DNA of 64,000 bases, from assembly GCF_001677475.2 (NCBI RefSeq), contig NZ_CP015229.1, one strand, 5' to 3'. Position numbers: made by a program. The stretch's first letter is position 1. Every line of letters starts with the position of its first letter. Source of the stretch: Escherichia coli (GTDB taxonomy: Bacteria; Pseudomonadota; Gammaproteobacteria; Enterobacterales; Enterobacteriaceae). Positions 46,101 to 49,100 of this stretch are shown here, piece after piece.

Positions 46101-49100
46101 TCCTCGACCATAGCGGTGCGCCACTGGATGAAAAACAGAAAATGGGCACCGTGGGGGCCGTGGCGTTGGATTTAGACGGTAATCTGGCGGCAGCCACGTC
46201 CACGGGCGGAATGACCAATAAATTACCCGGACGAGTTGGCGATAGCCCCTTAGTGGGTGCCGGATGCTACGCCAATAACGCCAGTGTGGCGGTTTCTTGT
46301 ACCGGCACGGGCGAAGTCTTCATCCGCGCGCTGGCGGCATATGACATCGCCGCGTTAATGGATTACGGCGGATTAAGTCTCGCGGAAGCCTGCGAGCGGG
46401 TAGTAATGGAAAAACTCCCTGCGCTTGGCGGTAGCGGTGGCTTAATCGCTATCGACCATGAAGGGAATGTCGCGCTACCGTTTAACACCGAAGGAATGTA
46501 TCGCGCCTGGGGCTACGCAGGTGATACGCCAACCACCGGTATCTACCGTGAAAAAGGGGACACCGTTGCCACACAGTGATGAACTTGATGCCGGTGATGT
46601 GCTGGCGGTTGAAAATCTGAATATTGCCTTTATGCAGGACCAGCAGAAAATAGCTGCGGTCCGCAATCTCTCTTTTAGCCTGCAACGCGGTGAGACGCTG
46701 GCAATTGTTGGCGAATCCGGCTCCGGTAAGTCAGTGACTGCGCTGGCATTGATGCGTCTGTTGGAACAGGCGGGCGGTTTAGTACAGTGCGATAAAATGC
46801 TGTTGCGGCGGCGCAGTCGTGAAGTGATTGAACTTAGCGAGCAGAGCGCTGCACAAATGCGCCATGTGCGCGGTGCGGATATGGCGATGATATTTCAGGA
46901 GCCGATGACATCGCTGAACCCGGTATTTACTGTGGGTGAACAGATTGCCGAATCAATTCGTCTGCATCAGAACGCCAGTCGTGAAGAAGCGATGGTCGAG
47001 GCGAAGCGGATGCTGGATCAGGTACGCATTCCGGAGGCACAAACCATTCTTTCACGTTATCCGCATCAACTCTCTGGCGGGATGCGCCAGCGAGTGATGA
47101 TTGCGATGGCGCTGTCATGCCGCCCGGCGGTGCTGATTGCCGATGAGCCAACCACCGCGCTGGATGTCACTATTCAGGCACAGATCCTGCAATTAATCAA
47201 AGTATTGCAAAAAGAGATGTCGATGGGCGTTATCTTTATCACGCACGATATGGGCGTGGTGGCAGAGATTGCCGATCGGGTACTGGTGATGTATCAGGGC
47301 GAGGCGGTGGAAACGGGTACCGTCGAACAGATTTTTCATGCACCGCAACATCCTTACACCCGTGCGCTGTTAGCTGCTGTTCCGCAACTTGGTGCGATGA
47401 AAGGGTTAGATTATCCCCGACGTTTCCCGTTGATATCGCTTGAACATCCAGCGAAACAGGCCCCCCCCATCGAGCAGAAAACGGTGGTGGATGGCGAACC
47501 TGTTTTACGGGTGCGTAATCTGGTCACCCGTTTTCCTTTGCGCAGCGGTTTGTTGAATCGCGTAACGCGGGAAGTGCATGCCGTTGAGAAAGTCAGTTTT
47601 GATCTCTGGCCTGGCGAAACGCTATCGCTGGTGGGCGAGTCTGGCAGCGGTAAATCCACTACCGGGCGGGCGTTGCTGCGCCTGGTCGAATCGCAGGGCG
47701 GCGAAATTATCTTTAACGGTCAGCGAATCGATACCTTGTCACCCGGCAAACTTCAGGCATTGCGCCGCGATATTCAGTTTATTTTTCAGGACCCTTACGC
47801 TTCGCTGGACCCACGTCAGACCATCGGTGATTCGATTATCGAACCGCTGCGCGTACACGGTTTATTGCCAGGTAAAGAAGCGGCTGCCCGCGTTGCGTGG
47901 TTGCTGGAGCGCGTAGGCCTGTTACCGGAACATGCCTGGCGTTACCCTCATGAGTTTTCCGGCGGTCAGCGCCAGCGCATCTGCATTGCTCGCGCGTTGG
48001 CATTGAATCCAAAAGTGATCATTGCCGACGAAGCCGTTTCGGCGCTGGATGTTTCTATTCGCGGGCAGATTATCAACTTGTTGCTCGATCTCCAGCGTGA
48101 TTTCGGCATTGCGTATCTGTTTATCTCCCACGATATGGCCGTGGTAGAGCGGATTAGTCATCGTGTGGCGGTGATGTATCTCGGACAAATTGTTGAAATT
48201 GGTCCACGGCGCGCGGTCTTTGAAAATCCGCAGCATCCTTATACGCGTAAATTACTGGCGGCAGTTCCGGTCGCTGAACCGTCCCGACAACGACCGCAGC
48301 GTGTACTGCTGTCGGACGAGCTTCCCAGCAATATTCATCTGCGTGGCGAAGAGGTGGCAGCCGTCTCGTTGCAATGCGTCGGGCCGGGGCATTACGTCGC
48401 ACAACCACAATCAGAATACGCATTCATGCGTAGATAACATTCAGGCGGAGAATAAAATGGCAAGAGCTGTACACCGTAGTGGGTTAGTGGCGCTGGGCAT
48501 TGCGACAGCGTTGATGGCATCTTGTGCATTCGCTGCCAAAGATGTGGTGGTGGCGGTAGGATCGAACTTCACCACGCTCGATCCGTATGACGCAAATGAC
48601 ACGTTATCTCAGGCCATAGCGAAATCGTTTTACCAGGGGCTGTTTGGTCTGGATAAAGAGATGAAACTGAAAAACGTGCTGGCGGAGAGTTATTCCGTTT
48701 CCGATGACGGCCTTACATACATCGTGAAGTTGCGGGAAGGAATTAAATTCCAGGATGGCACCGACTTCAACGCAGCGGCGGTAAAAGCGAATCTGGACCG
48801 GGCCAGCGATCCGGCGAATCATCTTAAACGCTACAACCTGTATAAGAATATTGCCAAAACGGAAGCGATCGATCCAACAACGGTAAAGATTACCCTCAAA
48901 CAGCCGTTCTCAGCGTTTATTAATATTCTTGCCCATCCGGCGACCGCGATGATTTCGCCGGCAGCGCTGGAAAAATATGGCAAGGAGATTGGTTTTCATC
49001 CGGTGGGAACCGGGCCGTATGAACTGGATACCTGGAATCAGACCGATTTTGTGAAGGTGAAAAAATTCGCGGGTTACTGGCAGCCAGGATTGCCCAAACT

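Follow-up and report, generated by a model that had tools for sequence, protein, structure and literature searches.

The analysed window, a stretch of 64,000 nt from Escherichia coli (contig NZ_CP015229.1), carries the isoaspartyl dipeptidase gene iaaA and, directly downstream, gsiA, which codes for the ATPase of the GsiABCD importer for glutathione and glutathione disulfide. The features at the junction of both genes are compiled in Table 1. Residues 5–310 of IaaA match the Pfam domain Asparaginase_2 (E = 1.4e-116) and the gene terminates with the codons ACA CAG TGA TGA, of which the first TGA (46577–46579) is the stop. In GsiA, Pfam detects two stretches each of ABC_tran (E = 1.2e-63) and oligo_HPY. 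This pattern, two ABC_tran domains with an oligo_HPY C-terminal region behind each of them, is that of the fused double nucleotide-binding ATPases of the Opp/Dpp type. GsiA is homologous to fused DppD/OppD ATPases of solved structure, with E = 1e-109 to DppD of M. tuberculosis (8wd9_D), and residues 4–5 of the solved homologues align with GsiA residues 9–13.

Table 1. Features at the iaaA/gsiA junction. Positions refer to the window.
Feature	Position	Strand	Basis
iaaA CDS, isoaspartyl dipeptidase / beta-aspartyl peptidase, 321 aa	45614..46579	+	ORF list, Pfam, RefSeq and K-12 extent
IaaA C-terminal extension, 8 codons AAA-GGG-GAC-ACC-GTT-GCC-ACA-CAG (KGDTVATQ)	46553..46576	+	ungapped alignment with relatives
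gsiA Shine-Dalgarno (SD) sequence AAGGGG	46554..46559	+	within iaaA CDS, 6-nt spacer to TTG
gsiA start codon TTG	46566..46568	+	sequence, K-12 b0829 annotation, TetRP signal, orthologous start codons
iaaA/gsiA overlap, 14 nt	46566..46579	+	gsiA in +1 frame relative to iaaA
second in-frame iaaA TGA (tandem stop)	46580..46582	+	sequence; comparison with Citrobacter werkmanii
gsiA CDS, 623 aa, fused double ABC ATPase of glutathione importer GsiABCD	46566..48437	+	Pfam, solved homologues, annotation
rejected start, GTG (Val12), gsiA start in 2006 K-12 annotation U00096.2	46599..46601	+	TetRP, SD, codon variation
rejected start, ATG (Met23), first downstream in-frame ATG	46632..46634	+	conservation, SD, solved homologues
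rejected start, upstream ATG heading the mechanical 659-aa ORF	46458..46460	+	SD −1.5 kcal/mol, upstream stops, substitutions

From position 46566, the gsiA frame reads TTG-CCA-CAC-AGT-GAT-GAA-CTT-GAT-GCC-GGT-GAT-GTG-CTG-GCG-GTT-GAA-AAT-CTG-AAT-ATT-GCC-TTT-ATG, which yields the N-terminus (M)PHSDELD and places the first conserved part of the ATPase domain at residues 12–22. With Pro as residue 2, the initiator Met would probably be cleaved off. The first-pass annotation, made from the sequence alone, had placed the gsiA start at this TTG, as an ATG is missing at the expected position. Indeed, the N-terminal region lacks an ATG, the first one in frame being codon 23 at 46632. The duplex of the SD sequence with the 3’ end of 16S rRNA has a computed energy of −7.8 kcal/mol and ends at position −6 relative to the start codon. 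When the seven in-frame start-like codons were compared, a good anti-SD match was seen at TTG exclusively, while the remaining codons yielded values of −4.8 to +0.4 kcal/mol. All of the 11 relatives for which it was computed have an equivalent SD sequence (−7.1 to −11.3 kcal/mol). Thus, the assignment of the start to TTG holds: SD sequence, K-12 annotation, tetracycline-inhibited ribosome profiling (TetRP) and orthologous start codons agree on it. Two details have to be corrected. TTG was regarded as a non-canonical start, but it is one of the three standard bacterial start codons and initiates ~3% of the E. coli genes. It was further said to overlap the iaaA TGA; the first 14 nt of gsiA do overlap the iaaA end, but the TTG codon itself is located 8 nt from the TGA.

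The same arrangement is annotated in K-12 MG1655 (NC_000913.3), in which iaaA spans 866568..867533 and gsiA 867520..869391, confirming TTG. As in the window, K-12 gsiA (b0829, formerly yliA; NP_415350.2; U00096.3 / NC_000913.3) starts with TTG and shares 14 nt with iaaA; both sequences agree at every position from −46 to +29 and show allelic differences only, e.g. residue 11 of GsiA is N in K-12 and D here. RefSeq provides the same gsiA start in three other E. coli genomes inspected. Within the species, the 23-nt core at 46556–46578 is found unchanged in 5353 of 5426 complete genomes. The exact core is missing from ~72 genomes, which have other SNPs, their number having been bounded with shifted 33-mers, and versions of the 33-mer with ATG, GTG or CTG as start codon had no match among the E. 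coli genomes. The in-frame TTG at 46566 is not a chance occurrence, which is excluded by the SD sequence, the annotation and the conserved core.

Start-site profiling had been proposed as a check, and it is available in a related form. TetRP detected initiating ribosomes at the gsiA TTG (Nakahigashi 2016, PMC4909307 Table S2): row 8 lists yliA (=gsiA) with a new initiation site at 866743, a shift of −33 and the codon TTG. Sequencing depth was 46.3/140.5/70.6 at TTG as compared to 0/0/2.98 at the start annotated in 2006, 33 nt downstream, and the site coincides with the 2014 annotation. The search covered ±60 nt, and within this range TTG is the sole alternative listed for gsiA. The peak falls within the iaaA CDS, 8 nt before its stop; the authors state that start signals under strongly expressed upstream genes can be ambiguous, and only ymdC and surE are named in this respect (PMC4909307). 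The column for N-terminal peptides in Table S2 is empty for yliA. In the part of the TRAINSPOTTER tables covered, iaaA is present and gsiA was not found, and no gsiA entry was found in the Salmonella riboproteogenomics supplements or in the supplements of Giess 2017. Hence, the TTG start of gsiA and its overlap with iaaA are already known from current annotation and start-site profiling, and they are ordinary.

For comparison with relatives, contigs were searched with the N-terminal 300 aa of GsiA, which returned mostly distant ABC ATPases among the matches listed and the usable Enterobacteriaceae loci L004 and L005. Loci from other genera were obtained by a search for homologous proteins followed by retrieval of the encoding contigs. 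In each of the 13 Enterobacterales loci, the aligned codon is TTG, GTG or ATG: four carry TTG (Escherichia, C. werkmanii and K. grimontii), six GTG (the Salmonella-like locus, K. pneumoniae, Kluyvera, Leclercia and two metagenome loci) and three ATG (Pantoea, Mixta and Enterobacter sp. Bisph1). TTG, GTG and ATG can replace one another in their role as start codons only. A non-AUG start (GUG/UUG) is used in 10 of the 11 Enterobacteriaceae loci, and the two Erwiniaceae (Pantoea, Mixta) have AUG. The substitution pattern likewise changes at this codon. At positions −90 to −19, substitutions fall into third positions of iaaA codons (99 of 109), while in gsiA codons 2–11 third positions of the gsiA frame are preferred (42 of 73), i.e. 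the pattern switches from the iaaA to the gsiA frame at TTG. Codons 2–11 furthermore encode a conserved PHS-ELD motif, also where iaaA does not overlap. Finally, an in-frame stop is present 4–6 codons upstream of the gsiA start in 5 of the 13 loci.

These data also allow to judge the other in-frame start candidates. The GTG at 46599, which was the curated start in U00096.2, would give a 612-aa protein without overlap with iaaA. With its N-terminus (M-LAVENL), it would match the short N-terminus of E. coli DppD, in which residue 4 is aligned to GsiA residue 13, and an anti-SD match, GGTGAT, is present just 5’ of the GTG. However, GGTGAT directly adjoins the GTG with zero spacer and forms a duplex of only −3.0 kcal/mol. 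The TetRP depths speak for TTG (46/140/71 versus 0/0/2.98), and curators relocated the start in 2014 (PMC4909307). Moreover, C. werkmanii, the Salmonella-like locus and K. grimontii carry GTA or GTT as codon 12; this synonymous variation between GTG, GTA and GTT means that the codon acts as a Val codon. The third-position bias and the conserved PHS-ELD in codons 2–11, seen even where iaaA does not overlap, argue against it as well, so that we consider initiation at this GTG highly improbable. Even less credit can be given to the ATG at 46632, which the first-pass annotation had named as the competing case. Although it is the first ATG past the conserved N-terminal region, Met23 is not conserved (H in the Salmonella-like locus, E in Citrobacter, R in K. 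pneumoniae and Kluyvera, Q in L086, S in K. grimontii, P in Leclercia), the codon has no SD sequence (+0.4 kcal/mol), and the resulting protein would lose residues 12–22, which align with the first residues of the solved Dpp/Opp ATPases. TTG as the sole alternative TetRP site within 60 nt (PMC4909307) speaks against it, too.

Just as remote is a start inside iaaA, at ATG 46458 or 46467 or at GTG 46521 or 46548, which would extend the protein to 629–659 aa and the overlap to 32–122 nt. The gsiA frame is open for 41 codons 5’ of TTG in E. coli, and some automatic gene calls in relatives reach upstream (e.g. P0042), but the SD sequences of these candidates are poor or misplaced (−1.5 to −4.8 kcal/mol). 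In addition, the in-frame stops shortly before the start in five relatives, the iaaA-frame pattern of the upstream substitutions and the TetRP result, which gave TTG alone within ±60 nt (PMC4909307), oppose such starts. An IaaA-GsiA fusion protein made by programmed +1 frameshifting (GGG-G of the A5G4 run) was also considered and dismissed. It had been prompted by a predicted fusion, P0004, known from a single 1.6-kb contig, which goes back to a 1-nt homopolymer difference in the DNA and is most likely an assembly error; moreover, the A site at this GGG-G would hold neither a slow codon nor a stop.

The comparison also bears on how the overlap came about. In 9 of 12 relatives the iaaA stop is located 9–17 nt upstream of the gsiA start and both genes are separated. 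An overlap is missing in Salmonella, Klebsiella, Kluyvera, Leclercia, Pantoea and Mixta, and it is restricted to Escherichia, the Escherichia-like locus L088 and C. werkmanii among the loci examined. IaaA has 312–313 aa in Klebsiella, Kluyvera, Leclercia and L093 as compared to 321 aa here. In an ungapped alignment, GAA TAA GGAGCCGCAG GTG of the Salmonella-like locus corresponds to GAA AAA GGGGACACCG TTG of E. coli. The eight additional residues of IaaA, KGDTVATQ, which lie outside of the Asparaginase_2 domain, thus result from an AAA at the place where relatives have the ancestral stop, TAA or TAG. In C. werkmanii, the first TGA is replaced by CGA and iaaA ends at the second TGA. The overlap therefore looks derived: an ancestral TAA located directly 5’ of the SD sequence (GAA TAA GGAG) would have become AAA in Escherichia and C. 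werkmanii at equal length, whereupon iaaA would continue for eight codons to the TGA within gsiA. This direction of change is deduced solely from outgroup comparison, and should Salmonella, rather than Escherichia, be the nearer relative of Citrobacter, either a reversal or two separate changes would be needed. Loss of a stop codon is a general route to gene overlaps, for which the study of Fukuda et al. 2003 is reportedly an example from the overlapping-gene literature. The present case resembles such overlaps in that the exchange of one base (TAA to AAA) extends the upstream ORF to the next stop inside the downstream gene; here, length and SD sequence are unaltered, and there is no difference in kind.

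We therefore conclude, with a probability of roughly 90%, that gsiA is translated from the UUG at 46566 by means of an SD sequence inside the iaaA end and that the overlap is a lineage-specific by-product of the loss of the iaaA stop. AAGGGG, sited in the last iaaA codons, would direct initiation at the UUG, and gsiA initiation would mainly be of the ordinary SD-dependent type on an iaaA-gsiABCD mRNA. Ribosomes that translate or finish iaaA may assist, either because the site then stays unfolded or through re-initiation at the UUG, 11 nt before the stop, and GsiA output may be modest due to the weak start codon.

The first-pass annotation had additionally suggested translational coupling of iaaA and gsiA. 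Coupling as such is plausible, but no more than a possibility. A tight form, in which gsiA is mainly or only translated by ribosomes that have just translated iaaA, would be compatible with the TTG start as well, but we regard it as rather unlikely. It could operate through re-initiation after the stop at 46577–46579, ribosomes moving back by 11 nt to the UUG, or through opening of a structure that hides both SD sequence and UUG. The genes are co-directional, overlap by 14 nt and belong to one operon; the sole promoter-like site detected, at 45507–45535, is located upstream of iaaA, and a weak UUG start would benefit from a high local concentration of ribosomes. A predicted helix of 46534–46544 with 46587–97 encloses the start region (−26.9 kcal/mol, z = −1.97), which applies to this window and to E. 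coli only. Re-initiation by backward movement is known for phage coat/lysis genes at spacings of −38 to −50, according to a review. However, the spacings enriched among coupled genes are −4, −1 and −8, and −14 is not among them (review). The loss of the stop would have converted a separated junction of stop, SD sequence, 6 nt and start into an overlap of −14, after which ribosomes terminating on iaaA would need the backward move to reach the UUG. With its spacing of −14, the junction differs from pairs coupled at spacings of −4 or −1 with ATGA or TGATG, such as trpB-trpA. It further differs from such pairs in that its overlap is not conserved and in that IaaA and GsiA are not known as subunits of one complex, which the products of coupled pairs often are (PMC10666635).

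A conserved masking structure was likewise not found. Across taxa, the z-scores for folding of the start region spread between −2.97 and +2.17; the closest relative, L088, has +0.40, and three taxa lie near +2. Folding of the alignment yielded no conserved RNA structure over the gsiA start region but only a 4-bp hairpin far upstream, and with the per-taxon z-scores scattered around 0, conserved masking of the start was rejected. Furthermore, the SD sequence is placed at ideal spacing and permits independent initiation at gsiA; as it is a good one, such initiation would need nothing further. A translatome recorded under kasugamycin does not speak for coupling, with iaaA being resistant (KEV > 2) and gsiA exhibiting a KEV of 0.73; as these data are noisy, with p = 0.27 for gsiA, and based on polysomes and microarrays, they are uninformative in this respect. 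More speculative still is the idea, which loss of the stop and retention of a non-AUG gsiA start could together suggest, that selection favours little GsiA ATPase being made, perhaps in an IF3-sensitive or iaaA-dependent manner; we consider this improbable. If it applied, Escherichia and Salmonella would provide a natural before/after pair for overlap length and coupling. Nothing points to an unusual mechanism at the iaaA/gsiA junction.

The TTG start puts gsiA alongside other genes with corrected starts. A true TTG start, for which older annotation had given another in-frame codon, was also revealed by start-site profiling for ybeZ (PMC4909307 Table S2), and the same was shown by complementation for cdsA (PMC11448367). 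There is no difference in kind between these genes and gsiA, which had already been corrected in 2014. The significance for GsiABCD goes little beyond correct annotation; the TTG start fixes the true N-terminus of the 623-aa GsiA protein, which is relevant to cloning, tagging and structural work on the importer. As such, gsiA may serve as a textbook example of a TTG start overlooked in early annotation and put right by subsequent curation and start-site profiling, and its junction with iaaA as one of a short overlap arising from loss of the upstream stop codon.

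The TTG codon at the 3' end of iaaA is the known start of E. coli gsiA; it was corrected by curators in 2014, is supported by tetracycline-inhibited ribosome profiling (TetRP), and is corroborated independently by the comparative data presented here. Across the junction of the two genes, the iaaA frame reads CGT GAA AAA GGG GAC ACC GTT GCC ACA CAG TGA TGA, and the gsiA frame reads TTG CCA CAC AGT GAT GAA CTT GAT GCC GGT GAT GTG CTG GCG GTT GAA, continuing with AAT CTG AAT ATT GCC TTT ATG. The window sequence and the ORFs thus agree with the first-pass annotation in placing a TTG in the gsiA frame at the end of iaaA. 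The same annotation had this TTG overlapping the TGA. In fact, iaaA and gsiA share 14 nt, from the TTG to the iaaA stop, but the TTG codon itself does not reach the TGA. The purely mechanical ORF listed for the gsiA frame begins at an ATG at 46458 and ends at 48437.

Features at the iaaA-gsiA junction (window coordinates)
Feature	Position	Strand	Source
gsiA start codon TTG	46566-46568	+	window sequence
iaaA stop TGA	46577-46579	+	window sequence
iaaA CDS, 321 aa	45614..46579	+	ORF list

The tandem stop TGA TGA (46577-46582) terminates iaaA; in Citrobacter werkmanii the first codon is CGA and the second TGA serves as stop. Further downstream, gsiB, gsiC and gsiD (48457, 50013 and 50936, respectively) all begin with ATG, so that gsiA alone within the operon lacks an ATG start. 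gsiC and gsiD are separated by a gap of 2 nt. The designation of the gsiA start as "non-canonical" is a misnomer because TTG is a standard bacterial start codon, which begins ~3% of E. coli genes. It is among the three canonical start codons, with initiation reaching 10-100% of that from AUG (Hecht et al.).

In K-12 MG1655 (NC_000913.3), iaaA extends over 866568..867533 and gsiA (b0829, NP_415350.2) over 867520..869391, and position 867520 is the first base of the TTG. Therefore, the TTG start and the 14-nt overlap represent the current reference annotation. In K-12, U00096.2 (2006) had placed the start at a GTG located 33 nt downstream and U00096.3 (2014) moved it to the TTG; the ".2" version of NP_415350.2 fits this re-annotation. 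Start-site ribosome profiling, proposed as a check in the first-pass annotation, is available from the TetRP study of Nakahigashi et al. 2016 (DNA Res, PMC4909307). Row 8 of Table S2 therein lists ECK0819 yliA, the former name of gsiA, with a new initiation site at 866743 (U00096.2), a shift of -33 and the codon TTG; this site is identical to that of the 2014 annotation. Read depths in the three samples were 46.3, 140.5 and 70.6 at the TTG versus 0, 0 and 2.98 at the start annotated in 2006 (GTG, window position 46599), with the caveat that the gsiA site is internal to the iaaA coding sequence and is separated from the downstream iaaA stop by 8 nt. The authors reported two other genes as ambiguous through overlap with strongly expressed upstream genes. 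In the yliA row, the N-terminal peptide column is blank and "nt" is entered under confirmation; a GsiA entry was absent from the other start-site and N-terminomics supplements searched.

The junction region was found at at least 95% identity in 5425/5426 complete RefSeq E. coli genomes; of the 5426 matching places, 5 are on plasmid-labelled records, and one genome carried two junction copies. The exact 23-nt core (46556-46578), comprising part of the Shine-Dalgarno sequence (SD), the spacer, the TTG and the sequence as far as the stop, was present in 5353/5426 genomes, and shifted 33-mers in 5209 and 5345; the other 1-2% of genomes carry SNPs. No match was obtained in the same genome set with 33-mers in which ATG, GTG or CTG replaced the TTG. 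In 3/3 RefSeq genomes opened, iaaA ends 14 nt past the annotated gsiA start and the junction sequence is identical. At GsiA residue 11 (46596-46598), the window and FDAARGOS_497 encode Asp (GAT), and K-12 and an ExPEC strain from mussels encode Asn (AAT). In the mussel strain (NZ_CM172609.1, 1767-3583), gsiA is annotated as a truncated CDS of 510 aa with a pseudogene fragment after it, apparently owing to a frameshift or disruption.

For comparison, the junction was retrieved from 12 other Enterobacterales loci. The codon aligned to 46566 is TTG in an Escherichia-like metagenome locus, C. werkmanii and Klebsiella grimontii, GTG in a Salmonella-like locus, K. pneumoniae, Kluyvera, Leclercia and two metagenome loci, and ATG in Pantoea, Mixta and Enterobacter sp. 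Bisph1. Only as start codons can Leu, Val and Met codons substitute for one another. Five loci carry an in-frame stop 4-6 codons upstream and no other start-like codon before the gsiA start, which is therefore pinned there. An SD match of -7.1 to -11.3 kcal/mol is present in all loci and ends 3-7 nt before the start. In the five taxa that share the same spacing, 99/109 pairwise differences between -90 and -19 affect third codon positions of iaaA; past the start, the excess shifts to gsiA third positions (codons 2-11, 42/73; codons 12-22, 60/94; beyond, 402/713). All differences from the Salmonella-like locus in codons 2-8 (PHSDELD) are synonymous, despite the lack of iaaA overlap there.

Other candidate gsiA starts in E. 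coli are rejected. The downstream ATG at 46632 (Met23), which the first-pass annotation had named as the competing start, is not conserved, has no SD (+0.4 kcal/mol) and, used as the start, would remove residues 12-22; alignments with solved Dpp/Opp-type ATPases begin at GsiA residues 9-13 and at residues 4-5 of those proteins. The GTG at 46599 has an SD match of only -3.0 kcal/mol, which abuts the codon, varies synonymously in relatives and lacks a TetRP signal. For the upstream ATG and GTG codons, SD matches are weak or wrongly positioned; these codons lie in sequence evolving in the iaaA frame, and stops exclude them in relatives.

Translational coupling of iaaA and gsiA, also suggested in the first-pass annotation, is possible: the genes overlap, the sole promoter-like site found is located upstream of iaaA, and a predicted 10-bp helix of 46534-46544 with 46587-46597 (MFE -26.9 kcal/mol, z = -1.97) would enclose the gsiA SD and start. 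However, this helix is specific to E. coli and lost in the closest relative, the Escherichia-like locus (z = +0.40). The alignment fold yielded no consensus structure and did not recover the helix, and start regions are unusually open in three taxa (z about +2). Moreover, a spacing of -14 is not among the enriched coupling spacings, and the overlap is not conserved. The kasugamycin translatome (PMC5230787 Tables S1 and S3) is weak evidence and lends no support: iaaA, with a 32-nt 5'-UTR, is among the resistant transcripts (KEV > 2), whereas gsiA has a KEV of 0.73 (p = 0.27), and thus two genes of one operon behave differently in this data set. We consider tight coupling of gsiA translation to iaaA unlikely; ordinary 30S initiation at gsiA, which has a good SD with 6-nt spacing, is sufficient.

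Outgroup comparison suggests that iaaA ancestrally stopped immediately 5' of the SD. At equal length, the Salmonella-like locus has GAA TAA GGAGCCGCAG GTG where E. coli has GAA AAA GGGGACACCG TTG. A ...GAA TAA/TAG stop is also found in K. pneumoniae, K. grimontii, Kluyvera, Leclercia and others, and yields an IaaA of 312-313 aa compared with 321 aa in E. coli. A T-to-A change would have converted the stop to AAA in Escherichia and C. werkmanii, adding KGDTVATQ to IaaA; the added residues fall beyond the Pfam domain, whose last residue is 310. The 14-nt overlap would accordingly be a side effect of the stop change and not a conserved design. This stop-loss origin and the persistence of non-AUG gsiA starts in Enterobacteriaceae are the sole additions, both small and neither of them surprising.

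The gsiA SD is contained in an A5G4 homopolymer run at 46550-46559 (GAAAAAGGGG), and loss of one G from this run would join IaaA to the gsiA frame. Exactly such a fusion is predicted from a single 1.6-kb Logan contig (P0004), most likely as a result of faulty assembly or sequencing rather than frameshifting.
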